Positions 213 through 13,676 are shown, numbered from the stretch's first letter. The stretch: 64,000 bases of DNA from Methanomassiliicoccales archaeon (GCA_035506675.1 DATJOX010000057.1:17748-81747), one strand, 5' to 3'. The notes: generated by a model not told the origin, from the sequence alone. Numbers and translations: made by a program.

Positions 213-1073
213 CTAGCTGAATTCCACTTCGCTCCCCACGGGCATGAGCTCGAACCCGACGAACCGGTCCGAGATCATCTTCATCGCTTCGAACCCTGAG
301 CAGTGCATCGGGGCGATGCGCTCGACGTTCAGGTTCTTCAGCTGGTCCATGGTCTTGCGGACCCGGTCCTGCGTGGCACCGGAGAGGTGGAAGCCCCCAA
401 GCACCATCTGCACCTTGGAGCCGGTGGATTTCTTCGCATGCGTGACAATGTTCACGATCCCCGGGTGGGCGCAGCCTGAAACGACGATCAGCCCGCGTTT
501 GCTCGTCAAGTAGAGCGCCTGCTCATCGTTGACCTGGTCCTCGAACGTCTTGCCCTCTTCCTCCCGTAGGAAGTTGTTGGTGTGCTCGAAGTCGGTGACG
601 CGAGGGATCTCGCCGGAGATCTTGACCCCGGGAAGGATCTCGGTCAGCGAGGAAACGAAGCTCAGTTTAGCCTTCGGCAGCGACTCCGTGAGAGACTGTG
701 GCGGCGAGATATCGGTCTTGGTGTCCCCGCCGGTGGAGTAGCGCCTTCCGACGAATGTCTTCGGGTGCGCGTAGACAGGCACGCCCGCCTCGATGAGCGC
801 CCCCAGCCCCCCCACGTGATCATAGTGGCCGTGGGTGATGAAGACCGCGTTGAGGTCTTTCGGCTCGACGCCGCAGAGCTTGAGGTTGTTCAGGAACACG
901 GTCTCCGAGGCTCCGGTGTCGACCAGTACCTTGTGACCGGCATCCGTCTCCACAAGGATCGAAAAACCCTGTTCCGAGATGAAGTGCCTGTCGGGCCTCT
1001 CCAGGTGACGAACGAGCCTCGACGGCGCACACACCAGCCCGGACATGTTGTCAACGACGGTGATCAGCTTCAC
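213..1073 (-). CDS. MBL-fold metallo-hydrolase (MJ0448-like family)
   Basis: THGHYDH (HxHxDH), GCAH, GGFH and HCSG motifs; GTG start overlaps ramA TGA (GTGA). Confidence 0.85.
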   Translation of the reverse strand: MKLITVVDNMSGLVCAPSRLVRHLERPDRHFISEQGFSILVETDAGHKVLVDTGASETVFLNNLKLCGVEPKDLNAVFITHGHYDHVGGLGALIEAGVPVYAHPKTFVGRRYSTGGDTKTDISPPQSLTESLPKAKLSFVSSLTEILPGVKISGEIPRVTDFEHTNNFLREEEGKTFEDQVNDEQALYLTSKRGLIVVSGCAHPGIVNIVTHAKKSTGSKVQMVLGGFHLSGATQDRVRKTMDQLKNLNVERIAPMHCSGFEAMKMISDRFVGFELMPVGSEVEFS

Positions 1074-2719
1074 GCCGTTCCCTCTCTGCGCACGATCTTG
1101 AGGTCGCTAAATCGGAGGACGCCCTCCGGGCAGACGGACTCGCAGTTCTTGCAGGCAGTGCCGAGGCAGTACTCCGTGGCGATCCGCAGACGGAACTGCC
1201 CTTCGCCGACCTTCTCGACGCGCAAAGCTCGCTCTGGGCATTCACGCATGCACTTCTTGCAGCCGATGCAGCCCTCGAACTCCTTCATGAGGTAGACGCC
1301 TACGTGCTCGAGCGTCTTCAGTCCGTTGTCACCGATGACAGGTATGTCGCTGGACACTATGCGCAGCGTCTCCTTCGGGCGCTTGATATCGGGAAGCGGG
1401 CGGTACCCTTTGTCCTTGAGCATGCGGTTGAACATCTCGAATGGCATTCCCTCGAGCCAGTAGGCGATCTCGTTCACGTAGATGTCCTCGAACACCTTGC
1501 TGGTAGCGAACATTATGTGCTTTGCCGACATCGAGTCCGCGATCGCCTGCATCTTGTCCATGGCGTCGTCGATCACGAGCAGGTCGTACGCCATCATCAG
1601 CGAGGTGTTGCCGCATTGGTAGGTCCGCTCCAAAACCCTCGGCACCAATCCGACGGTCTGCGCCTTGATCGGGTCCACGTAGGTTCCTGAAGCCCCAGCG
1701 AGATACATCGACTTGACCTGGTCGTCATCGATGCCCACTTCCTCGATGAGCGTGCGGTGCCCCGCCCGGATCGCGCCCATCGCCTTTCCGGCCTCGAGCA
1801 CGTCGTGCTCGGTGATGAACACGCCATCCTGCAGGTGGATCTTCTTGTCTGGAGTTGTCACATAGGGCAACTTGATGATGCCGGTGTCCAGCCCGACCGC
1901 GACCGCTGCCACGACGCCGGTGCCGGTAATGCCTCTCGCCTTCATCGTGCTCGTGGTCTCGATCTTGCCAGTCGAGGGGTTGACGAGACAGCCGGCCTGG
2001 GTCCTAAGCCTCTCATCAAGGACGAAGTTCTGCCATCCGCCATTGTCCTGGGGCTGCAGATCGGAGATCGCGTGCGGGGCCGCGAGCATCCCGTACTCGA
2101 TGCTTTGCCCCTCCATGGCCGGGCCCGCCGCTGCTGATCCAGTGTAGAGCTCACCGTCGACGTACAGACCCATCTCTGCGTTGGTGCCGTAGTCGGTCAC
2201 CATGCACGTCTCCTTGCGTTCGAGCATGTGCGATTTGATTATCATCGCCAGCGCGTCCGCGCCGATCTCGTGGCGTATGGATGGAGGAATGCGCACCTCG
2301 CATTCGGGGTGGACGGACTTGAGCTCGAGGTCCGCTGCCACTCGCGTGTGCGCCCTTCGCTCCGGGACCTTGACGTTATACTTCTTGAGTATCGATTGGC
2401 CGGCGTAAGCGAGGTCGCGGATCTCAATGTTCTCGAACATCGACAATTGCGCCGGATTGCCACAAATCGCCATCCGCCTGATCTCTTTGGGATCGGTGCC
2501 GTGAAGCTCGATGAGCTTGTCGACCGTCTCTGCGATGATGCGATGGCCGACCGCCGACCCGTTTTCAAGCCAGAAATGGAGGTGGTCCATGATGTTTGCA
2601 CCAGGCAGGGGGTGCCTCATCGTGATCGCTGTCGAGATGATCTTCCCGTTCTTTTCGAGGTCGACGAGGTGGGTACGATATCCGCTAGTGCCTAGGTCCA
2701 GAGCGATCCCATAAACCAT
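1070..2719 (-). CDS. ramA: Corrinoid protein reductive activase RamA
   Basis: N-terminal ASKHA motif ALDLGTSG, DYGTNAE, AGPAMEGQ; C-terminal 2x[4Fe-4S] CIGCKKCMRECP and CLGTACKNCESVCP; 549 aa. Confidence 0.93.
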   Translation of the reverse strand: MVYGIALDLGTSGYRTHLVDLEKNGKIISTAITMRHPLPGANIMDHLHFWLENGSAVGHRIIAETVDKLIELHGTDPKEIRRMAICGNPAQLSMFENIEIRDLAYAGQSILKKYNVKVPERRAHTRVAADLELKSVHPECEVRIPPSIRHEIGADALAMIIKSHMLERKETCMVTDYGTNAEMGLYVDGELYTGSAAAGPAMEGQSIEYGMLAAPHAISDLQPQDNGGWQNFVLDERLRTQAGCLVNPSTGKIETTSTMKARGITGTGVVAAVAVGLDTGIIKLPYVTTPDKKIHLQDGVFITEHDVLEAGKAMGAIRAGHRTLIEEVGIDDDQVKSMYLAGASGTYVDPIKAQTVGLVPRVLERTYQCGNTSLMMAYDLLVIDDAMDKMQAIADSMSAKHIMFATSKVFEDIYVNEIAYWLEGMPFEMFNRMLKDKGYRPLPDIKRPKETLRIVSSDIPVIGDNGLKTLEHVGVYLMKEFEGCIGCKKCMRECPERALRVEKVGEGQFRLRIATEYCLGTACKNCESVCPEGVLRFSDLKIVRREGTA

Positions 2720-2895: not shown

Positions 2896-3927
2896 ATGAA
2901 CTCGAAGGAGAGGTTTCTCGCGGCGCTGCGACTGCAGGGGGCAGATAGGGTGCCGCTCCTCTATCAGCACCTCGGAGCATCGAGCCACTTGCAGAAGGCC
3001 CTCGGACTGCAGGTGATGACGGGGTTCGATGACCCAGAGGTGTTCGCAAGACTCTCTCTTGAAGCCCATCGCCAATTTGGCTTCGACAACGTCATGGCTG
3101 GCTGGGGGGACTTGATGACCGAGGCGCATGCGCACGGAGCGACCTGGAAGTTCACCGACCCCCGCTTCTATCCAAGGCCAGTTGCTTATGTGCCGATGAG
3201 CAAGGCGACTGAGATACAGCCGGTCGATCCCAATAAAGACCGGCATTGGTCGGTCCCCCTGAAGGCGGCGAAGATCATGCTCGAACGCCTCCACGGAGAG
3301 GTTGAGGTAGTGGGAGCCTGCGTCTCCCCATCCTTGATCGCATGCGAGACCGTGGGAATGGAGACGCTGATGATGGCGTATTTCCAGCAGGAGGACGCGG
3401 TGCACAGCACGCTGCGCGCAATAGTCGAGTCCTGCAGGGCATACGGGGAGAGGGCCAGTGAAACCGGGCTCGGGACAGTCTTCGTCGACGATAGCGGGGC
3501 GGGCATGGAGTTGGTCTCGCTGGACATGTATCAGAAGTTCGATGGCGGCTACCTGTCAACTGTCATGTCACACTGGAAGCGCTTAGGAATCTCCACCATC
3601 ATTCACAACGACTCTGCTCAGCCTTTCTACGAAGCTCAGGCTGGTCTTGGCCCGGCGGCACTTCATGTGCACTTGAAGGCCGTCGACGTTCCGAAGTTCT
3701 TCTCCGACCTCAAGAGACGGCTTTGCGTAATCGCTGGAATCGATCACACTGACCTGCTGTTCAAGAAACCGCCGAACGATGTCGAGGCGGAGGTCACGCG
3801 CGTTCTTGGATTGTGGGGACGCGATCCTGGCCTTATCCTTGCTCCCGGTTGCGAGCTGCCCTACAAGACGCCGCTGGAGAACATAACGAGGATGCGGGAG
3901 GCAGTTGTCAAGCATGGCAGCATCTGA
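2896..3927 (+). CDS. URO-D/MtaA-CmuA family methyltransferase, divergent Zn site
   Basis: MNSKERFLAAL..ADRVP start, APGCEL end typical of the family; HND where MtaA has HIC. Confidence 0.8.
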   Translation: MNSKERFLAALRLQGADRVPLLYQHLGASSHLQKALGLQVMTGFDDPEVFARLSLEAHRQFGFDNVMAGWGDLMTEAHAHGATWKFTDPRFYPRPVAYVPMSKATEIQPVDPNKDRHWSVPLKAAKIMLERLHGEVEVVGACVSPSLIACETVGMETLMMAYFQQEDAVHSTLRAIVESCRAYGERASETGLGTVFVDDSGAGMELVSLDMYQKFDGGYLSTVMSHWKRLGISTIIHNDSAQPFYEAQAGLGPAALHVHLKAVDVPKFFSDLKRRLCVIAGIDHTDLLFKKPPNDVEAEVTRVLGLWGRDPGLILAPGCELPYKTPLENITRMREAVVKHGSI

Positions 3928-4020: not shown

Positions 4021-7000
4021 CTGACGATTTCAGTCCTGTTCGCTGATGACCTCCAGGGCTCCTTGGCGAATTTCGGGGCCAGTCTCGAAAAGTCCGGCGA
4101 ATTCTCTCTGGTGCGCGCGACCTCGAGTGCTGATGCGGGAGCGCTGATTTCTGCCGGCGGACACGACGCAATCATCTCATTCCATCGTCCTCCAGAGCTC
4201 GATGGGCTTGAGCTTCTGAGACGGGCGCGTGCACAACGTGGGAAGATTCCGTTCGTCCTCGTTGTTGGCGACATCAGCCACGACGTGATCAGTGAGGCTT
4301 GGGGTGCGGGTGCTGACTTCGTTCTCAGAAAAGACGTCGACCTCGCGCCGCTCGCGAACGCGCTCTCCAAGAGGATACTCGTGGCGGTCGATCGGAACCG
4401 ACGTGACGAGCAGCTCCTCCTTGCGCAGTTCTCCGTCGAAAACGCTGCGGTCTCAACCTACTGGATCTCGAGCGATGGGAGACTGTTGCGCGCGAACCGC
4501 GAAGCCTGCCGCAAGACTGGCTTTGCAGAACAAGAGATCATGAGAATGCACGTCTGGGACCTTGACCCGATGTTCCCCGAGAACCGTTGGAATGACCACT
4601 GGGACGAACTCTCGCGCAAGGGCCAGATGGTCTTCGAAACCATCCACCGCCGCAAGAACGGTGAAGAGTATCCGGTGGAGATCACCGCCAACTACCTCCA
4701 GGTCGGCGACAAGGCGTACAACTTCGCTTTCGAAGTCGATATCACCGAGCGGAAGGCGTTCGAGCAGCAGCTGACCGAGGCCATCAACTCATACCGGACG
4801 CTATCGGAGAACCTGCCGGGGATCGTATATCGCTGCCACCTCCAGCAGGATGAGCACATGGTCTTCTACAACAAGATGCTCAGCGCCTTGACCGGATACG
4901 AGCCGGAGGAGCTGCAGAAAGACGGCGTCTGCTCGATCGTGCCCCTCATCGTCCCAGAAGACCAGGATCGAGTCCTCGATGAAGTCAGGACGGCAATGGA
5001 GAAGGATGAGACCTTCGAGGTCGAATATCGCCTGAGGAGAAAGGACGGTCAGATTGGCACATTCCTCGAGAAGGGGCGGCCCAGCCGGGACGCTCTCGGA
5101 AAGCCGCTATACATCGACGGCGTGATCTTCGACATCACCGAAAGAGTGGCGGGCGAAAAGGCCGTCGAAGAGAGCGAGAGCCGTTTCCGCCAGCTAGCTG
5201 ACATGCTTCCCGCGGTCGTATTCGAAACGGACACGAGGGGAAGGGTCACTTATGTCAATGCCGCTGGAATGAAGCTTACCGGGTTCACCCTTGGAGAGCA
5301 CGGCACAGATTTCGACGTGATCGATCTCATAGACCCTCAGGAAAGAGAGAGGGGAGTCGCGAGCATGGCCCGACTTCTCAGAGAGGGCGGACAAGGCAGC
5401 GGCCTCTACCACGTGCCGAAGGCGGACGGGGCCGTTCTGGAACTAAGTATCCACGCGTCTCCGATATACAAAGGTGACAAAGCGGTGGGATTGAGAGGAG
5501 TGGCGGTCGACGTCACCCAGCTGCGACGGACCGAGGCCCTCAAGACCGCGGTGTACCGCATCTCCGACTCGGCCGCGGCCTCCGCGAACCTCGAAGAGCT
5601 CTACGCTTCGATCCACTCGATCCTCACCGAGCTCATGCCTGCTGGCAATTTCTTCATCGCATTGAAGGACGAGCACACGAACGAGATCAGCTTCCCATAC
5701 TTCGTAGACGAGAAGGACCCGACCCCTGCGCCAAGGAGAATGGGTCGAGGGGTGACGGAGTACGTGATGGAAAAAGGGGTACCGCTCATCGCCACCGACA
5801 AGGACCTCGAGGAGCTCCGCGAGCGCGGCGAACTGGACATAATCGGGGCCCTGCCGTTGAGCTACATCGGCGTTCCACTGCGGACGGCTACTCAAGCAAT
5901 CGGCGTGATGGCGATCCAGTCCTATGACCCGAAACTCCGTTACAAGGAGGAGGATCTGGGCATCCTGCAGTTCGTGTCGAATCAGGTCGCCTTGGCGATC
6001 GAGCGCAAGCGCAAGCTCGAGGAGGCGCGCGAGTACCTCTCGCTGCTGAAGACCACCTTCGAGTCGACCGATGACGGGGTTCTGATCGTGGACCTCAATG
6101 GTTCGACGCTCGCCTCAAACGAACGCTTCGGGAAGATCTGGAAACTGCCGCCGACAATCCTCGAGACGCGCAACGACGAGATGCTTCTGAACACCGCGAT
6201 CAAACAGCTCGACGATCCCAAACCATTCCTCGAAAGGGTGAGCTGGCTGTATGCTCATCCCGAGGAGGTCGGATTCGACGTGCTGCGCTTCGCCGACGGC
6301 AGGATCATCGAGCGCTACTCCCAGCCGTATATGGCAGGGGGCGAGGTCCAAGGCCGGATCTGGAACTTCCGGGATGCGACCGAGCGCATCCGCGCCACCG
6401 AAGCGCTGAAGAAGTCAGAGGAAGAGCTGAAGGCGATCATCGACAGCGCCAAGGACGTCATCTTCGTGAAGGACTGCGACGGCGTCTACCTGACCGTCAA
6501 CGCGGGAATGGCGAAGCTGTTCGGGGTCACCAAGGAGCAGATGGTGGGCAAGTGCGACCGGGACTTCTTCCCCGAGCATATGGCGAAGGACATCGAGGCC
6601 CAGGACCGGCTCGTTTTGCAAGGTGTGGAGCGGGACGAGGAGGTGCTCCGGACCGTCAACGGAGTCGACTACGTCTTTTCGCTCGTCAAGGCGCCGCTGA
6701 GGATCGACGGCGAGGTCGTCGGCGTCTGCGGCATCGGTCGCGATGTGACCGAGAGGAAGCGCGTCGAGAAGGCGCTCCAGGATGCGAACCAGTCTCTCAA
6801 CATGCTGAACTCGATCACGCGCCACGATGTCCTCAACCAGCTGATGGTCATCCGCGGGTACTCGGATCTGCTCCGAGGAGCGGAGCAGGACGAGAAGCAC
6901 CTTCAGTACATCAACAAGATCGAGAAGGCGGCGCGCGCCATTCGGTCGCAGATCCAATTCACTAAGGATTTCCAGAAACTAGGTTCCTCCGAGCCGCGAT

Positions 7001-7437
7001 GGCAGGACGTGCAGGAGCTAGTAGACCAGGCAGTCTCCACGCTCGAGATCGGGGACATGGACATCAGCGTCGACCTGATGGGCCTGGAGGTGTTCGCCGA
7101 CCCCATGCTCGAGAAGGTGTTCTACAACCTCGTTGACAACACCCTGCGCCACGGTGGCAAGGTGCACTCGATCAAGGTCACCTGCGAGAAGGAAGGGAGC
7201 GGACTGCGCCTCAGGTATGAGGACGATGGAGTGGGCATCAAGCCTGAGGACAAACAGCGCATCTTCGACCGCGGATTCGGGCACAACACTGGATTCGGGT
7301 TGTTCATGCTGACCGCGATCCTTCGGGTCACTGGCATCAGCGCGGAGGAGAATGGAGAGTTCGGCAACGGGGCGAGGTTCGACCTGCACCTGCCCTCAGG
7401 ATCGTTCCGCTTCCGCGAGTGGGACGACAAGGCCTAG
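4021..7437 (+). CDS. Multi-sensor histidine kinase (pseudo-REC, multiple PAS, GAF, HisKA, HATPase)
   Basis: ITRHDVLNQL H-box, NLVDNTLRHG N-box, EDDGVG, GHNTGFGL. Frame is open back to CTG 4021 (TISVLFADD); the track starts at TTG 4063. Confidence 0.9.
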   Translation: MTISVLFADDLQGSLANFGASLEKSGEFSLVRATSSADAGALISAGGHDAIISFHRPPELDGLELLRRARAQRGKIPFVLVVGDISHDVISEAWGAGADFVLRKDVDLAPLANALSKRILVAVDRNRRDEQLLLAQFSVENAAVSTYWISSDGRLLRANREACRKTGFAEQEIMRMHVWDLDPMFPENRWNDHWDELSRKGQMVFETIHRRKNGEEYPVEITANYLQVGDKAYNFAFEVDITERKAFEQQLTEAINSYRTLSENLPGIVYRCHLQQDEHMVFYNKMLSALTGYEPEELQKDGVCSIVPLIVPEDQDRVLDEVRTAMEKDETFEVEYRLRRKDGQIGTFLEKGRPSRDALGKPLYIDGVIFDITERVAGEKAVEESESRFRQLADMLPAVVFETDTRGRVTYVNAAGMKLTGFTLGEHGTDFDVIDLIDPQERERGVASMARLLREGGQGSGLYHVPKADGAVLELSIHASPIYKGDKAVGLRGVAVDVTQLRRTEALKTAVYRISDSAAASANLEELYASIHSILTELMPAGNFFIALKDEHTNEISFPYFVDEKDPTPAPRRMGRGVTEYVMEKGVPLIATDKDLEELRERGELDIIGALPLSYIGVPLRTATQAIGVMAIQSYDPKLRYKEEDLGILQFVSNQVALAIERKRKLEEAREYLSLLKTTFESTDDGVLIVDLNGSTLASNERFGKIWKLPPTILETRNDEMLLNTAIKQLDDPKPFLERVSWLYAHPEEVGFDVLRFADGRIIERYSQPYMAGGEVQGRIWNFRDATERIRATEALKKSEEELKAIIDSAKDVIFVKDCDGVYLTVNAGMAKLFGVTKEQMVGKCDRDFFPEHMAKDIEAQDRLVLQGVERDEEVLRTVNGVDYVFSLVKAPLRIDGEVVGVCGIGRDVTERKRVEKALQDANQSLNMLNSITRHDVLNQLMVIRGYSDLLRGAEQDEKHLQYINKIEKAARAIRSQIQFTKDFQKLGSSEPRWQDVQELVDQAVSTLEIGDMDISVDLMGLEVFADPMLEKVFYNLVDNTLRHGGKVHSIKVTCEKEGSGLRLRYEDDGVGIKPEDKQRIFDRGFGHNTGFGLFMLTAILRVTGISAEENGEFGNGARFDLHLPSGSFRFREWDDKA

Positions 7438-7450
7438 CGGGCGCTGACCG

Positions 7451-7489
7451 AATGAAGAAATGAAAAGTGAAATGAGGAGAGGTCTCCTC
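7451..7489 (-). terminator. Hairpin plus T-rich tract downstream of mtaA
   Basis: GAGGAG-AGGT-CTCCTC (7474-7489) followed on the minus strand by ATTTCACTTTTCATTTCTTCATT. Confidence 0.55.
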
Positions 7490-7496
7490 GGTTTGA

Positions 7497-8507
7497 TTAA
7501 CCCTTTATCGCCTTGACGAGCGCGTGCAGGTTGGCGGCTGGAACGCGCGCCGCGAGCCCGCATCCCGGCGCGACCAGGTCGAAGCCGGCGTTCTTCACGC
7601 GGATCGCTTCCTTGGTCACGTCCTCGGGGGTTCCCTGAAGGAGCGGCCTGACGACGCCGATGTTGCCCACAAGGGCAGCACGGTGGTTCACGATCTTGAC
7701 TGCCGCCTCAGGCTGGACCTTCTCCTCGATGCTCAGAGCGGTGACGCCCGTGTTGATCATGTGATCGAGCAGGATGGTGGTGTCACCGCAAATGTGAAGG
7801 ACCGTCTTCGCGTGCTTCACTCCGGAGAAGCACTCCTTGATGTACGGCTTTGCGTACTCGTCGAACATCTCGCCCGACAGCATGTCGGTCGAGGCGCTTG
7901 GGTCGCTCATGACGATGACGTCCGCGCCCGCCGCGTCGAGGGCCTCGATGTAGGCCTTCTCTAGCTTGGTCGCGAGCTTGATGGCCTTCACGACCGCCTC
8001 CGGGTTGGTGATGATCCAGAGCAGCAGGTTCTCGGTGCCGACCATGTGGCCGGCGATGGTGAACGGGCCGGTGGTTCCGGCGACGATGGGCAAGTCATTG
8101 CCATACTTCTCCTTGGCGATCCTAGTGGCCTCGACGACCACAGGGATCCTTCCCAGCTTCATGGCGTTGGCGGGCAGGTCATCGGGGATGTTGCTCTCGT
8201 CGAACGCGTGGGCCTTGACCATCGGGGTGCGGTCCATCTTTCCGAGGTCGACACGGCAGCCCATGACCTCTGCCTCGACGGTCAAGCAGAACGGCAACCG
8301 GACGCACTCGAGCCCGAACAGCTTCGCGGGGGCGGCTCCGAGCTCGGCCATCTTCTTGGCATCGGTGTGAGCGTCAGGCCAGTAGACCTTGACGGACTCC
8401 ATTGCATCAACGGTCACGATCTGCGTGAAGCAGACGACAGGGGGCCTGTCCAACTTCTTTCGGTCGAGTGCTGCGAGCACCCGGTCCTTCGCGGTGTGGT
8501 GTGGCAT
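7497..8507 (-). CDS. mtaA: Methylcobamide:CoM methyltransferase, MtaA/MtbA family
   Basis: Canonical Zn ligands LHICG and APGCG; GPFT motif; ATG 8507 preceded by AAGGAGG and a TTTAAG box. Confidence 0.88.
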   Translation of the reverse strand: MPHHTAKDRVLAALDRKKLDRPPVVCFTQIVTVDAMESVKVYWPDAHTDAKKMAELGAAPAKLFGLECVRLPFCLTVEAEVMGCRVDLGKMDRTPMVKAHAFDESNIPDDLPANAMKLGRIPVVVEATRIAKEKYGNDLPIVAGTTGPFTIAGHMVGTENLLLWIITNPEAVVKAIKLATKLEKAYIEALDAAGADVIVMSDPSASTDMLSGEMFDEYAKPYIKECFSGVKHAKTVLHICGDTTILLDHMINTGVTALSIEEKVQPEAAVKIVNHRAALVGNIGVVRPLLQGTPEDVTKEAIRVKNAGFDLVAPGCGLAARVPAANLHALVKAIKG

Positions 8508-8570
8508 TACACAATCCTCCTTAACAGTCTTAAACCCGTTCGGTGGCTGGCACAACGAGATAGAGTGTAA

Positions 8571-10553
8571 TTAAGCTTTCGTCCCCCCGCCGACCGCCCC
8601 TGGCTTGCCGCTTGCGCGCGCATGCACCTCGACCCAGTTGACGTACTCCTGAACCTCCTTGGCGCCGAGGCGAAACCGGACCTCTTTGATGTCGACTTTG
8701 ACCGCGATTTCGACGCCGCCCGCATCCTCCGCCCTCTTGCGCGCGATCTCTTCCGCGACGTTCTTCGCGTGGGCGATCGCCTCTTCTTCGTGCTCGAAGT
8801 CGACGGGCTCGCGACCGGGGGCATAGACATGCAGCCTTTCGTCGCGGCTGTGGATCTCCACCATGACGCTTTCTGCCACGATCGAGCAGACAGCACCGAC
8901 GGCGTTTCCCACCTCATGGTTCTCCGGAACGACAACATTCGTTCCGAGCATCTTCTCCACCATTGGGACGTATACGTGCGCGGGTGCGCCAATGGCCACG
9001 ATCGGACGGTCAAGTGTCGCCGCCAGGTGGAATCCCTGGTCGGGATGGGCCCCAGTGATCGCGTCGAGCACATAGGTCCCGAGCCTGCCGCGGAGCATTT
9101 CGCCGGAGCCGTCCAAGAATGCCTTCTTCGAGACCTCCTCGGCTATTCTTTCCCCCATGCGCTTGAGGATCAGCTCCACCGCTTGTTCGGTCGTGCAGTC
9201 GAGCTCCTTCGCGAGAAGCTCAACCCCCGCTCTGGAAGCCTCCACGGAACCGCGCCGATATGCTCCTGTTACGTGGAGCACGTCGGTCGGCGTCAGGCCA
9301 GTGGAAATAAGATGGGTCTTCTCGGTGAGCCGTTTGATGTAGTGAGAAGCAAGGTAGACGTTCGGAAGCAGTTGATGCACCTCGCTCGCGGCGAGCGGCC
9401 CTTTGTCCCGGATGGTCTCAAACACCAGACGCTCTCCCTCGGGCAGCCCAGAGGGATCCCTCGGGATCGCGACCAGGAACTCGGTTCTCTCATGGTCGAC
9501 GATCTTCTTGAGCAGCGACGGGTTCTGGATGCACGCTTCCTCGAGCGGCAGCACCCTGTCCGGTCCGATGGTCAGCGCTCCGCTCTCCGCGCTCAGTCTC
9601 GAGTCGCCGCCCAGTCCTGCCGTCCAGATGTCGATCGCGCGCACTCTCGTCCGCCATTCGCCCACGGTCGCCCCTTCCGCCTTCAGCCTTGGGAATCCGG
9701 CGTCCAGGAAGGCGATGTCAGTGCTTGTCCCCCCGACATCGACGACGATGCAATTGTCGACGCCTGAAAGAGCCTGGCCCCCCATGAGGCTGGCCGCTGG
9801 CCCCGAGAGAATCGTCTCCACTGGATGCTCGCGTGCCTTCGCGAGACCCATAAACGTGCCATTTCCGCGGAATACCATGATGTTCGCGGTCACGTTGCGC
9901 GAGCGCATCGAGCGCTCCACGCCATCAATGAATTCACTCAGTATCGGAAGCAGGCGAGCGTTGAGGACGGCCGTGACCGTCCGCTCTCTGATCCCGAGCT
10001 CCGACGTAAGCTCCCTACCTGCGACGACCGGAAGGCCGGTCAGCTCCCTCACCCGTTCTCGGACGGCGTCTTCATGCACGGGGTTCACTATGCTGAAGAA
10101 TCCCGAGACCACGATCGACTCTACGCCGTCCATCACCGTAGCGATCGCAGCGTCGACCTGCCCGGGGTCCAATGGGGCGAGCGTTCTGCCTCGCGCATCG
10201 TGACCTCCGTCAATGAACGCCGACCTCGCGGCCCCAAGATGCCAGTCTCCATCCGGATGCCAACCGATGCCAATCAGCCCAACCCTTCCTCCCTTCCCCT
10301 GGAGGAGCGAGTTCGTGGCCAGAGTCGTACTGATGCCGACGAGCTCGATCTGCCCGACATCCACGCCCGAAGCGAGGACCTCGTCGACCGCCTTCAGAAG
10401 CCCCTCGGAGAGGTCGTGATAGGTCGTCTGCGCCTTGGCCTTCGCGAGCACTCTTCGCGTCGCCATGTCCACGATTGCGGCGTCCGTGTACGTTCCGCCT
10501 GTGTCGATGCCCAGGCCGAGCGATTTCCGTGACTTGACCGGCTCTTGCTGCAC
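8571..10553 (-). CDS. Hydantoinase/oxoprolinase A-family protein (ASKHA fold)
   Basis: GIDTGGTYTDAA, STTLATN, ILSGPAAS, DVGGTSTDI, GLGGDS motifs; 660 aa. Confidence 0.9.
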   Translation of the reverse strand: MQQEPVKSRKSLGLGIDTGGTYTDAAIVDMATRRVLAKAKAQTTYHDLSEGLLKAVDEVLASGVDVGQIELVGISTTLATNSLLQGKGGRVGLIGIGWHPDGDWHLGAARSAFIDGGHDARGRTLAPLDPGQVDAAIATVMDGVESIVVSGFFSIVNPVHEDAVRERVRELTGLPVVAGRELTSELGIRERTVTAVLNARLLPILSEFIDGVERSMRSRNVTANIMVFRGNGTFMGLAKAREHPVETILSGPAASLMGGQALSGVDNCIVVDVGGTSTDIAFLDAGFPRLKAEGATVGEWRTRVRAIDIWTAGLGGDSRLSAESGALTIGPDRVLPLEEACIQNPSLLKKIVDHERTEFLVAIPRDPSGLPEGERLVFETIRDKGPLAASEVHQLLPNVYLASHYIKRLTEKTHLISTGLTPTDVLHVTGAYRRGSVEASRAGVELLAKELDCTTEQAVELILKRMGERIAEEVSKKAFLDGSGEMLRGRLGTYVLDAITGAHPDQGFHLAATLDRPIVAIGAPAHVYVPMVEKMLGTNVVVPENHEVGNAVGAVCSIVAESVMVEIHSRDERLHVYAPGREPVDFEHEEEAIAHAKNVAEEIARKRAEDAGGVEIAVKVDIKEVRFRLGAKEVQEYVNWVEVHARASGKPGAVGGGTKA

Positions 10554-10564
10554 TCTGGTCCCCC

Positions 10565-11308
10565 CTAAGGCTTCAGCGTCTGATATACGTCGCTCAGTCC
10601 CTTGAGGACCCGGAACCCCTTCTCCGTGATCATGTAGTCGCCTCGGTCGTGACGCTGAATTATAAGCCCCGTGTCCACCAGCTTCTGGATGTGGAATAGG
10701 AGATTGCCTCCGCGTAGGCCAGTTATTTCCGCGAGCGATGAAAAGGTGCGAGCATCCTGACTGAGGGCCTTGATGATCTGCATGCGCTGCCGGTTCGACA
10801 TCGGCTCGAGAACCTGCTTGACAAGTAGCTCCTCAGGAATCTCTGAAATATGCTCTCTCGTGTCAGAAGAGGTCGAATAGATTCGCATCGAGCGCATCAG
10901 GCGCACCTGCTTCCCGAACAGGCGCGCGACCTCGTCGAAGCACTTCTCGCACTTGTCGTATGGCGCGGTCTCGCGAAGCCTATCCAGCTCGCCCTGGTTC
11001 GTGATGATCGTCTCCTCCCGAACCGTGTCCTGCTCGAGGAGCGAGGCGTTCTTCTGCAGGAAGGCGGTGAATGTCGCGCGGCACGGCTCCTTCATGTCGC
11101 ACCGCTTCACCATGTTGCGCGATAGCCCGTCGCCCACGTCCTCCATGTTCTGCGAGACCATTACCTCGAGCAGGTCGCTCCGGGCCCTTCCGGACGTGGA
11201 GTCGATCGGACGCCGCCGGACCTGCATCTGACGCAACGAACTCTCGATTTCGTCGAGTCTGCGCAGGACGAGAGTCATGCTCTTTGCGTTCTGGTCCTCA
11301 TCGCTCAT
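10565..11308 (-). CDS. Winged-helix (ArsR-like) regulator with Cys-containing N-terminal domain
   Basis: C-terminal MSNRQRMQIIKAL..GGNLLFHIQKLVDTGLI..YMITEKG; CDMKEPC and CEKC upstream; start taken at ATG 11308. Confidence 0.8.
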   Translation of the reverse strand: MSDEDQNAKSMTLVLRRLDEIESSLRQMQVRRRPIDSTSGRARSDLLEVMVSQNMEDVGDGLSRNMVKRCDMKEPCRATFTAFLQKNASLLEQDTVREETIITNQGELDRLRETAPYDKCEKCFDEVARLFGKQVRLMRSMRIYSTSSDTREHISEIPEELLVKQVLEPMSNRQRMQIIKALSQDARTFSSLAEITGLRGGNLLFHIQKLVDTGLIIQRHDRGDYMITEKGFRVLKGLSDVYQTLKP

Positions 11309-11335
11309 TGAGGTTGGAAGGCGATCTGGCTTGAT

Positions 11336-11355
11336 AAGGTTTCCCGAGAAACCTT
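11336..11355. promoter_or_regulatory. Perfect inverted repeat AAGGTTTC-N4-GAAACCTT
   Basis: Read directly; lies between the divergent regulator and MTH865 starts. Confidence 0.55.
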
Positions 11356-11377
11356 CACGGTCTGACAAGTGCACCGG

Positions 11378-11394
11378 AATGCACTAAGTGCATT
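11378..11394. promoter_or_regulatory. Perfect inverted repeat AATGCAC-N3-GTGCATT
   Basis: Read directly; same intergenic region. Confidence 0.55.
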
Positions 11395-11449
11395 TCGCTG
11401 CCGGGCATCGATATCTACCCGTGGCAATGTTCACTGGATAAGGTGTACT

Positions 11450-11692
11450 ATGTCACTCGCGAAAGAAGTGATACGCAAGCAAATCGAGCGGGCATTGGCG
11501 GACGCGAAGTTCCCGATCAAGACGCCTGGTGACCTGATCAAGGCATTCCCGAACGGTGCGGACACCACCTGCAAGTACGGGGACATGAAGATGACCGCGG
11601 GAGAGGCGGGCAAGCTCCTCAAGCCAACGGACTTCCCGTTCCAAAGCGCGAAGGCAGTCGCCGATGTGATAGTCACACGCGCCGGTCTCTGA
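11450..11692 (+). CDS. MTH865-family protein
   Basis: 80 aa from ATG 11450: AKFPIKTPGDLIKAFPNGADTTC..TAGEAGKLLKPTDFPF matches my recollection of the family signature. Confidence 0.85.
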   Translation: MSLAKEVIRKQIERALADAKFPIKTPGDLIKAFPNGADTTCKYGDMKMTAGEAGKLLKPTDFPFQSAKAVADVIVTRAGL

Positions 11693-11695
11693 CCT

Positions 11696-11770
11696 CCAAC
11701 CTTTTCCCTTTCGTTTTCAGATTCAAGCGCCTTCGCTGGCAGGGAACCAAAATAAAAGAAGTGAAACGGA
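11696..11770. terminator. Back-to-back T-rich terminators between convergent genes
   Basis: Plus strand CTTTTCCCTTTCGTTTTC after 11692; minus strand TTTCACTTCTTTTATTTT after the corrinoid gene. Confidence 0.5.
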
Positions 11771-11802
11771 AGGGGTTTGTCGAACGAATGGTCTCGGATC
11801 GT

Positions 11803-12441
11803 TTAGCCCTTTACGAGCGCAGTGGCGATCTTGACCGCCTCGATGGCGTCGTATCCCCAGGCGTCCGCGCCGATCTGGGCCGCGAACTCCTTCGAGGTCG
11901 CACCGCCACCGATCATCGTCTTGACGCCAGGCTTCATGTTGGCTTCCTTGAGCATGCGCTCGATCTCCTTCATGCCCGCCAGTGTCGGGGTCATGAGGGT
12001 GGAGGTCGCAACGATGTTCACGGACTCCGCCTTCGCCTTCTCGACGATGTTCTTCAGTGGCACATCGCGCCCGAGGTCGAAAATGGTCATGCCGGCGCCG
12101 GTGAGCATCGCCTTGACGATGTTCTTGCCGATGTCGTGCACGTCACCCTCGACGACGCAGATGACGACCTTGCCCGCCGCTCCGGCCTGTCCGACCTTGA
12201 GCTTCGGGAGCGCGACGTCCAACGCCGCGTACATCGTCTGCGCGGAGAGCAACACCTGTGGCAGGAAGTACTCCTTCTTCTCGTACTTCTGACCGACCAC
12301 TTCCATACCCTTGGAGAGTCCGTTGAAGATGATCTCCTGGGCTGTCACTCCGTTGGCCATTGCCTGCTCCGCGAGCGGCTTGGCCTCCTTTATCTTACCC
12401 TTCACAACAACTTCAGCGAGCTGTGCGAGATAGTCTGCCAA
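11803..12441 (-). CDS. Methyltransferase corrinoid (B12-binding) protein
   Basis: EGDVHDIGKNIV (DxHxxG), DLGRDVP, STLMTPT, GGGA; TTG 12441 with AGGAGG upstream; 212 aa. Confidence 0.93.
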   Translation of the reverse strand: MADYLAQLAEVVVKGKIKEAKPLAEQAMANGVTAQEIIFNGLSKGMEVVGQKYEKKEYFLPQVLLSAQTMYAALDVALPKLKVGQAGAAGKVVICVVEGDVHDIGKNIVKAMLTGAGMTIFDLGRDVPLKNIVEKAKAESVNIVATSTLMTPTLAGMKEIERMLKEANMKPGVKTMIGGGATSKEFAAQIGADAWGYDAIEAVKIATALVKG

Positions 12442-12488
12442 ACTCAACTCCCTCCTTATGGGAATTGCCTGCGGATTACAGTCGTCAA

Positions 12489-12523
12489 TATTAAAAGCTT
12501 GGATGGATGGATGTAACATCCAA
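12489..12523 (-). promoter_or_regulatory. TATA box with upstream palindromic operator for the corrinoid gene
   Basis: Minus-strand TTTTAATA at 12496-12489; TGGATGT-A-ACATCCA at 12508-12522. Confidence 0.6.
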
Positions 12524-12947: not shown

Positions 12948-13676
12948 CTATCTTCTTCGCGTACGAGGGAGGCGCGAGAGCAAGCCAAGCGGGAGCAGCC
13001 CGATCTCGCTGCAGGCGTATGCGACGGCGCCGGAGAGATCGCCACGCTGAAGCACCGGAGACATCGTGCCCTCGGAGCTGATGCCAGTGAAATCCGTGCC
13101 CCTTGCGAGGGGGCTGAATGCGGGCATCACCACGATCCTTTCTTGGGGAACGTGCACGAAGCAGGGCATCTTGACGCAGGCCCCGATGTCGTCGTACAGC
13201 CTCACAGAAGGGTGCTCGTGCCCGATCACAAGCGGGCGGTCGTCGCAATCCTCGTGACCGTGCACGAAATGGACGCCACCAACCTCGCACTTGTCCTTCA
13301 TCGTGACGCCGAGCTTCGAGGCGATGGTCGCCAGGTAGTTGTCGTGGTTGCCCCTAACAACTATCACATCTCCTTGGTCCTGAAGCAGCGAGAGGAGGGC
13401 GCGCACCTCGGACCATTCTTGAGCGAGGTTGCGGGAGAATTCATGTTTGAGGTCACCAAGGATGATGAAGCGTTTCGGGGAATGGCGTTCGATGATGCGT
13501 GTGAGCGTCTCCTTCATGCGCTCGGTCTGCATTCGAGGAAGATGAAGGCCACTGTCCTCCAGTACCGACTCGTACCCGAGGTGGAGATCGGCGATCACCG
13601 CGGTCGACTCGGTTGGGAGCAGGGCGCAGAGATCGTTGCTGATCAGCAGCCCCGGGATTATCTCAAGATCCTTCAT
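12948..13676 (-). CDS. Calcineurin-like metallophosphoesterase (MJ0037/SbcD-related type)
   Basis: DLHLG, GDLKH, GNHD, HGH, GHEHP motifs. Confidence 0.9.
   Translation of the reverse strand: MKDLEIIPGLLISNDLCALLPTESTAVIADLHLGYESVLEDSGLHLPRMQTERMKETLTRIIERHSPKRFIILGDLKHEFSRNLAQEWSEVRALLSLLQDQGDVIVVRGNHDNYLATIASKLGVTMKDKCEVGGVHFVHGHEDCDDRPLVIGHEHPSVRLYDDIGACVKMPCFVHVPQERIVVMPAFSPLARGTDFTGISSEGTMSPVLQRGDLSGAVAYACSEIGLLPLGLLSRLPRTRRR

Follow-up and report, generated by a model that had tools for sequence, protein, structure and literature searches.

A lone hydantoinase-A-like gene in a corrinoid methyltransferase cluster of Methanomassiliicoccales, and its possible role as an ATP-dependent accessory component

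Methyl transfer in Methanomassiliicoccales is described in the literature as the work of methyltransferase 1 (MT1), a corrinoid protein, methyltransferase 2 (MT2), and RamA. ATPases of the ASKHA superfamily service B12 enzymes in several systems, RamA and RACo through Co(II) reduction and DdrA, EutA, and probably GlmL on behalf of adenosylcobalamin enzymes. GlmL is a B-less offshoot of the hydantoinase-A branch and is encoded beside a B12-binding subunit (as PF13941 is described); to our knowledge, its own function is unproven. The methyltransferase activation protein (MAP) of Methanosarcina barkeri, reportedly purified in 1996 by Daas et al., is not known to carry a chromophore, and we know of no gene ever assigned to it. 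A review (PMC5007285) summarises MAP as an activator of the corrinoid methanol methyltransferase that autophosphorylates with ATP. In bacteria, the glycine-betaine-induced cluster of strain DCMF (CoP/MTI/MTII) holds a gene termed HydA, whose product is more abundant on glycine betaine; clusters syntenic to it occur in Sporomusa ovata and 'Ca. Frackibacter', and no role was offered for HydA (PMC9768040). Here, we describe a hydantoinase-A (HyuA)-like gene that lies in a corrinoid methyltransferase cluster within a 64,000-nt stretch of DNA from a Methanomassiliicoccales archaeon (GCA_035506675.1, DATJOX010000057.1:17748-81747; this whole stretch is called the window). We suggest, with moderate confidence, that its product is an ATP-dependent accessory factor of corrinoid methyltransferase modules.

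The HyuA-like gene (8571-10553, minus strand; an open reading frame [ORF] with Pfam matches, encoding an ASKHA protein of 660 aa) is preceded by a gene for an ArsR-type regulator (10565-11308, minus strand, enclosing ORF 10565-11374) and followed by one for an MtaA-type methylcobamide:coenzyme M methyltransferase, an MT2 of 336 aa (7497-8507, minus strand, enclosing ORF 7497-8555). A preliminary description of the locus had given these three genes as co-oriented, with gaps of 11 nt (10554-10564) and 63 nt (8508-8570), which ORFs and start codons confirmed. The gap lengths follow from the support for the starts at 11308 and 8507: the regulator start, ATG 11308, is M23 of the long ORF from GTG 11374 and is kept in 17 of 20 relatives, and the mtaA start, ATG 8507, is preceded by GGAGG. 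A hairpin with a T-rich tail just past the mtaA stop codon (7474-7489, minus strand) was the sole terminator-like site on the minus strand between 7300 and 12800, with none between the three genes, in a simple consensus scan whose result was not above shuffle expectation. A sigma-70 promoter scan of the region returned nothing, that consensus not being applicable to archaea. The short gaps, and a hairpin placed past mtaA alone, give the three genes the look of a single transcription unit.

Upstream of the regulator by 0.5 kb, on the same strand, we found a gene that the preliminary description had not listed, for a stand-alone corrinoid (B12-binding) protein of 212 aa (11803-12441, minus strand; B12-binding_2 and B12-binding, 73.6 and 82.7 bits). 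It lies 1.25 kb upstream of the HyuA-like gene, has TTG 12441 as its probable start, preceded by AAGGAGGG, and carries the DxHxxG His-on motif as GDVHDIG. Its TIGR02370 score is just under the cut-off (194.9 vs 215.3), and by type it scores higher against MtgC (167) and MtbC (164) than against MtaC (138), with no MT1 gene adjoining. The mtaA product matches URO-D (260 bits, Pfam) and belongs to both the PRK06252 (363.6 vs a cut-off of 244) and TIGR01463 (335 vs 235) subfamilies of NCBIfam, whereas it falls below the equivalog cut-offs for MtaA (360 vs 400) and MtbA (274 vs 600); among the three MtaA/MtbA-like genes of the genome, it has the top MtaA score (the others reach 284 and 271). The same cluster encodes RamA, the ATP-dependent reductive corrinoid activase (1070-2719, minus strand; TIGR04270 724.6 vs a cut-off of 500, with RACo_C_ter, Raco_middle, and 2x4Fe-4S domains).

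The HyuA-like protein shares its fold, ATP motifs, and similar length with the HyuA subunits of N-methylhydantoinase, 5-oxoprolinase, caprolactamase (CapA), acetone carboxylase (beta), and acetophenone carboxylase (alpha and gamma). Pfam matched Hydant_A_N in full (116 bits) and just the first half of Hydantoinase_A (positions 1-145 of the 291-position profile, 126 bits), together with a weak MutL/GlmL match (39 bits); the half-matched Hydantoinase_A signature was also found in 10 further family members, that is, in 11 of 11 tested including the window protein. The ASKHA phosphate-1, phosphate-2, and adenosine motifs are present (phosphate 1, DxGGTxTD, phosphate 2, DxGGT, and the adenosine motif as defined in PMC8453981). 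Positions D17-x-G19-G20-T21, D272-x-G274-G275-x-S277-T278-D279, G522-A-P524, N550-A-x-G553-A, and K40 are invariant in 30 homologues, and the segments D17TGGTYTD, D272VGGTSTD, G520IGAPAH, and G549NAVGA remain invariant or nearly so when a more divergent set of 22 homologues is included. No invariant cysteine occurs in the alignment of 30 or in that of 22 homologues. The AlphaFold2 model (predicted local distance difference test [pLDDT] 87.6, predicted template modelling [TM] score 0.84) gave full-length Foldseek matches to the HyuA-type subunits 9h03_A, 5m45_B, 5svc_B, 5l9w_B/b, and 6yra_A at TM scores of 0.57-0.64 and 16-19% identity, and only the shared core was matched to RACo and other ASKHA proteins (TM ~0.2 for 3zyy/4c1n). 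From this model, we take the protein to be a full-length, very divergent HyuA-fold ATP-binding protein, which, as its motifs suggest, binds and most likely hydrolyses ATP.

Its annotation in Pfam and at the source, N-methylhydantoinase A/oxoprolinase, and an overall fold that matches these enzymes would suit the alpha subunit of an ordinary hydantoinase, 5-oxoprolinase, or carboxylase with its B subunit gene at another locus. However, Hydantoinase_B (PF02538) had no match in the window or in the whole 1.97-Mb, 99%-complete genome, while the same search was positive in six control genomes. The earlier remark that no hydantoinase-B gene lies in the window is thereby borne out and extended to the whole genome, and with no cognate B subunit found genome-wide, the description of a lone hydantoinase-A gene stands. 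Across the order, PF02538 was detected in 2 of 151 genomes and is absent from the other 149, versus 142 of 151 for the HyuA-like family (1-8 copies each), and no conserved neighbour family of ~550 aa was found beside HyuA-like genes across 135 loci of the order and 80 metagenomic loci. Unlike the solved HyuA subunits (PDB 9h03, 6yra, 5m45/5svc, 5l9w), then, the window protein is B-less, shares only the low identity given above with them, and leaves the second half of Hydantoinase_A unmatched, and its family occurs in corrinoid methyltransferase clusters rather than in lactam or ketone catabolic operons. The CapA profile aligned with the N-terminal half of the protein only, and NCBIfam equivalog scores were far under their cut-offs, at 107.9 vs 1000 for CapA and worse for ApcC (98.6 vs 1500) and ApcA (51.9 vs 1250). 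We therefore regard an ordinary hydantoinase-type enzyme as effectively excluded, and hold that the protein cannot perform classical A/B lactamase or carboxylase work or carry an Fe-S cluster.

To place the gene among its relatives, we compared 135 loci with flanks of ±6 kb, containing 147 HyuA-like genes from 85 genomes of the order, by BLAST with the proteins of the window's genome, a procedure by which divergent corrinoid proteins may have been missed. Genes for a corrinoid protein and an MtaA both lay within 3.5 kb, an arbitrary distance, of 50 of the 147 HyuA-like genes. These 50 genes, here called type 1, are spread over 48 of the 85 genomes and 6 of 7 families and, the window's own genus left aside, over 15 of 23 genera, counts that overstate the number of independent events because genomes of one order share ancestry. 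Type-1 orthologues of the window's corrinoid protein are 57-87% identical to it and those of MtaA 54-81%, and orthologues at 56-60% identity keep the order B12-binding protein, helix-turn-helix protein, HyuA-like protein, URO-D. The usual order is metallophosphoesterase, (radical SAM), corrinoid protein, (regulator), (460-aa repeat membrane protein), HyuA-like protein, MtaA, (second URO-D), RamA, and a metallo-beta-lactamase (MBL)-fold or DUF169 protein, with optional members in parentheses; RamA is directly downstream of MtaA in most relatives. In families f2, f3, f5, and f7, the genes for the corrinoid protein, HyuA-like protein, MtaA, and RamA follow one another directly on one strand, and no regulator gene intervenes. 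The window's regulator and its neighbour, a small MTH865-family gene, were thus inserted in a lineage-specific manner into an older unit of the first three genes. Judged by these comparisons, the arrangement is far beyond chance; it persists throughout the order at protein identities of 40-60%. On a tree of the 147 HyuA-like proteins, corrinoid-linked copies are basal in each lineage and other contexts look derived, as far as trees made with FastTree only, whose deep branches are not secure, can show; the corrinoid-context label is strongly clustered on it (0 of 500 shuffles as low).

Several features of the type-1 loci vary by lineage. A radical-SAM gene (~370 aa, PF04055) stands directly upstream of the corrinoid gene in most lineages (L023, L025-L035, L039, L041, L044-L070), and is missing from the window, whose corrinoid start and metallophosphoesterase gene are just 506 nt apart. 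In genera g2 and g4 (L022, L025-L030, L037, L044-L065), a membrane protein of ~460 aa with internal repeats and no Pfam match is encoded between the Cys-rich regulator and the HyuA-like gene, followed in g2 by a predicted multi-pass membrane protein of ~350 aa (a permease by eye only); both are candidates for substrate transporters and are absent from the window. Type-1 ORFs of family f7 (L126-L134, L137, L138, L142) carry a conserved N-terminal extension of ~80 residues (MKQSEFDQWVQDWIKREKEAGRKCF...) that is absent elsewhere. Apparent in-frame TAG or TGA codons in paralogues (G077:C10, G105:C1, G053:C19, G109:C10, G039:C1) were considered as pyrrolysine read-through and dropped: in the one case checked, L025, the codon is the one that terminates the gene itself (ORF end 7941, match end 7947), with alignments running 2-4 residues past the end, and the others were taken as the same.

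The window's genome has four HyuA-like genes and not five, since the end of contig C54 and the start of C29 overlap by 141 nt, marking an assembly break inside one gene split over both. The most divergent of the four (C41:161970-163979, 38% identity) has a distant URO-D gene (362 aa) and the gene for a second orphan corrinoid protein at a distance of 4-5 kb; besides these, the segment C41:161970-169669 contains a gene of 369 aa with a faint match to HAD and one for a CobW-type GTPase. Across the order, the deeper lineage to which this copy belongs, here called type 2 (34-40% identity), immediately adjoins a corrinoid and URO-D pair other than that of type 1 in 16 of the 20 loci compared (L234-L249), and many host-associated genomes of Methanomethylophilaceae type have it as their sole or principal copy. 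Two old paralogue lineages are thus each linked to a corrinoid/URO-D module of their own, and in both the module comes without a recognisable MT1. Such a neighbourhood is not common to all paralogues of the genome: the copy on C27 lies by rlmE, purM, and a deoxyhypusine synthase-like gene, and the C54/C29 copy has hypE and an Fe-S protein gene as neighbours (both read by eye).

Scanning metagenomes with a diverse alignment brought up 80 relatives of 30-52% identity, 17 of which have methyl-transfer genes within 3.5 kb. Fourteen of these 17 fall outside the Methanomassiliicoccales clades on the tree, in several separate clades, and have as neighbours an MttB-superfamily MT1 (PF06253), a pterin-binding MT2 (PF00809), a corrinoid protein, or RACo. 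The HydA gene of strain DCMF, a lone N-methylhydantoinase-A-like gene co-induced with the corrinoid, MT1, and MT2 genes between which it lies (PMC9768040), has the same kind of context as these relatives; it is likened here by gene context alone, and its system differs from that of the window in being bacterial, with an MttB-family MT1 and a pterin-type MT2. With types 1 and 2 counted once each and three or four metagenomic clades from outside the order added, about five or six independent associations with corrinoid methyltransferases can be defended. Within Thermoplasmatota, the family was present in 24 of 25 sampled Methanomassiliicoccales genomes versus 1 of ~175 genomes outside the order (E ≤ 1e-30). 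In M. acetivorans, 'hydantoinases' MA4395/MA4396 adjoin mtaCB2, and a frameshift in MA4396 arose in a methanol/trimethylamine evolution experiment; we mention this as a lead only, since that genome has HyuB and the two genes may be a canonical A/B pair.

Part of the evidence speaks against a dedicated role in methyl transfer. About half of the order's paralogues are in contexts without a corrinoid gene, among them von Willebrand factor A (VWA) and MoxR-type AAA genes, HEAT-repeat genes, and housekeeping genes, and for 63 of the 80 metagenomic relatives the 3.5-kb surroundings contain no methyl-transfer gene, although 32 of these 63 contigs are too short to judge; malate synthase, ABC transporter, and Ser/Thr kinase genes are other neighbours among the 63. 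The wider family is accordingly not exclusively corrinoid-linked and may have a broader role. In the window's own genome, the methanol system on C58 (MtaB 724.8 vs 720, MtaC, and a second RamA) and a module on C17 (two URO-D proteins, a corrinoid protein, and RACo) both lack a HyuA-like gene. Gene order within a single archaeal order can, moreover, be partly inherited rather than selected, and Ferguson et al. are said to have found in 2009 that RamA alone suffices in vitro for methylamine systems. Two side observations belong here. One paralogue clade (L079, L089-L094, L109, L121, L122, L125, L135, L149) is flanked, by eye, by genes for a MoxR-type AAA ATPase-like (~485 aa) and a VWA-like protein (~475 aa), which would be a chaperone-like context without a corrinoid gene if this identification is right. 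The C17 module (C17:468-6736), with a RACo-like activase of 665 aa, a 462-aa gene, and a corrinoid gene between two URO-D genes, resembles bacterial O-demethylase-type systems.

These other contexts, of many paralogues and most metagenomic relatives, would be expected if the protein had a function unrelated to methyl transfer, such as that of an ATP-dependent chaperone or kinase or a part in cofactor metabolism, with the synteny inherited or reflecting mere co-regulation. It would also fit that the whole block from OTCase-DHH-RNaseH-like-metallophosphoesterase to RamA-MBL is syntenic, including genes with no obvious link to methyl transfer. Nonetheless, the linkage recurs independently in the type-2 lineage with a different corrinoid/URO-D pair and in several metagenomic clades with yet other methyltransferases, the family is nearly absent from non-methanogenic Thermoplasmatota, and the DCMF homologue is co-induced with methyltransferases (PMC9768040), so that we consider an unrelated function rather unlikely.

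An accessory role aimed at the corrinoid carrier is what we favour instead, because the protein combines a HyuA fold and an intact ATP site with the lack of a B partner and of Fe-S cysteines, and because its linkage to corrinoid proteins and methyltransferases is repeated and ancient, with RamA co-occurring and not replaced. That ASKHA ATPases service B12 enzymes in several systems makes such a role plausible. Comparable proteins are RamA, RACo, and RACE, likewise ASKHA ATPases of corrinoid methyltransferase clusters. The kinship with RamA proposed in the preliminary description holds at the level of the ASKHA superfamily and no closer: in contrast to RamA and RACo, the HyuA-like protein has no Raco_middle, RACo_C_ter, or ferredoxin domain match in Pfam or NCBIfam and no conserved Cys, and its structural similarity to RACo is confined to the core. 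Lacking these domains and cysteines, it is unable to deliver electrons itself. A role as a RamA substitute was rejected on the same grounds and in view of the RamA gene in the same cluster; the idea that it is the missing MT1 found no support, given its ASKHA ATPase fold and the co-occurrence of its metagenomic relatives with MT1 enzymes.

In the window, the module would consist of the corrinoid protein, MtaA, and RamA, with the HyuA-like protein as an accessory component whose target we infer to be the corrinoid protein, or its complex with the URO-D-type methyltransferase, and not a small cyclic amide. Binding or hydrolysis of ATP, or phosphoryl transfer, would keep the corrinoid carrier catalytically competent. 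The step concerned could be help to the RamA-dependent reactivation of Co(II) to Co(I), the loading or exchange of the cofactor, or a phospho-dependent switch, in a manner that may be likened to the roles of GlmL, EutA, and DdrA for adenosylcobalamin enzymes. Of the two functions that the preliminary description had offered, a second corrinoid-servicing ATPase fits the corrinoid adjacency in two paralogue lineages and in metagenomic relatives outside the order's clades, the ATP motifs, and the restriction, within the phylum, to a methyl-reducing order. The other, ATP-dependent activation or ring-opening of an N-methylated cyclic substrate, finds no support, with the hydrolytic B subunit missing from this genome and nearly all others of the order and with operons of relatives that hold different MT1 enzymes or none.

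A substrate could still be activated without ring hydrolysis, namely if the protein were a kinase that uses ATP to activate a methyl donor, which is then taken by the MT1-less corrinoid/URO-D pair. Canonical HyuA subunits phosphorylate small substrates before passing them on (PMC8453981), the phosphoryl-transfer motifs and K40 are invariant, neither type-1 nor type-2 modules have a recognisable MT1, and the repeat membrane protein and permease in the clusters of g2 and g4 hint at an imported substrate. However, metagenomic relatives outside the order's clades already stand beside an MttB-family MT1, and MttB-family systems, as published, do without an ATP-activated substrate. The association of the family with at least three different methyltransferase types also speaks against specificity for a substrate, and next to the gene neither a B-type partner nor any other acceptor enzyme is conserved. 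We consider a substrate-activating kinase unlikely.

Two further proteins bear comparison with an accessory ATPase of the kind we favour. GlmL/MutL (PF13941, NF040745) is likewise encoded by a B-less gene of the hydantoinase-A branch next to a gene for a small B12-binding-domain protein, an adjacency matched by the HyuA-like and corrinoid genes that adjoin in f2, f3, f5, and f7. The window protein is nonetheless no GlmL: it scores 31.9 vs 475 for NF040745 and 16.5 vs 204 for TIGR01319, with only the N-terminal ~60 residues aligned, and GlmL, at ~460 aa, serves an adenosylcobalamin glutamate mutase and not a methyl-corrinoid carrier. As for MAP, compared here by description only, the absence of a conserved Cys from the HyuA-like family would fit a protein without a chromophore, whereas the description of MAP concerns a methanol MT1 from another order and the window genome's own methanol MtaCB locus has no HyuA-like neighbour. 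By analogy, the HyuA-like ATPase might be MAP or its functional equivalent, a third general accessory component beside RamA/RACE in archaea and bacteria, which as an ATP-phosphorylated or phosphate-transferring protein would gate reductive reactivation or cofactor loading of the corrinoid carrier; we think this quite unlikely.

The regulator between the corrinoid and HyuA-like genes has an all-helical N-terminal domain of ~150 aa and, at its C-terminus, an ArsR/SmtB-type winged helix, with HTH_20, HTH_5, and DUF7347 matching residues 187-260. Its cysteines C92, C98, C142, and C145 (numbered from GTG 11374) are invariant in 20 of 20 relatives. An AlphaFold2 model (pLDDT 80.9) matched PDB entries over the C-terminal ~95 aa only (BigR, NolR, and CadC, TMt 0.7-0.77). 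We take this ArsR-type four-Cys protein to be the cluster's local transcription factor in this family of genera. The divergent intergenic region of 140 nt between the regulator and the MTH865 gene (11309-11448, read from the sequence) contains a palindrome, ATGCAC-TTA-GTGCAT, at 11379-11393. A second, perfect palindrome of 13 nt, GGATGTTACATCC, is located at 12509-12521, ~70 nt before the corrinoid start, followed by CATCCATCC, and is a possible operator.

Other genes of the cluster differ in how widely they are kept. The small MTH865-family gene between the corrinoid gene and the regulator (11449-11692, plus strand; PF07747 104 bits, start ATG 11449) is absent from this interval in the other lineages examined. 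Downstream, an MBL-fold protein is encoded next to RamA (213-1073, minus strand; Lactamase_B), its start overlapping the ramA stop by 4 nt, and the pair is kept in families f1 and f5. A second, divergent URO-D/MtaA-family gene (2896-3927, plus strand; URO-D 149.5 bits, PRK06252 123 vs 244) is conserved within the cluster in several genera, and a gene for a Receiver-PAS(n)-GAF-HisKA-HATPase hybrid sensor kinase (4063-7437, plus strand, identified by Pfam), convergent with mtaA, was found at this position only in the genera nearest to the window's own. The metallophosphoesterase gene (12948-13676, minus strand; PF00149) marks the cluster border in nearly all lineages; a functional link between its predicted product and the cluster is unproven. 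To the left of the window, which spans C57:17748-81747, by-eye reading of ORFs in C57:8259-17911 suggested mcrA/mcrB-like genes (8259-12462), a DUF169-like gene, and an MtxA/MtxH-like pair; if these identifications are right, the region, with mcr- and Mtx-like genes no further than 10 kb from the RamA end, would amount to a hub of methanogenesis genes.

In animal guts, methyl-reducing methanogens are chiefly Methanomassiliicoccales, an order targeted for methane mitigation. A conserved fifth gene in the corrinoid-MtaA-RamA cluster is not discussed in the genome papers PMC3814188, PMC4153887, and PMC5688252, and our literature search found no paper joining 'hydantoinase' with Methanomassiliicoccales. 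If the HyuA-like protein does service the B12 carrier, it would be a new component for in vitro reconstitutions, including those of bacterial quaternary-amine systems, and a possible explanation of the old MAP biochemistry, and the widespread misannotation of such genes as 'N-methylhydantoinase A/oxoprolinase' would be corrected.

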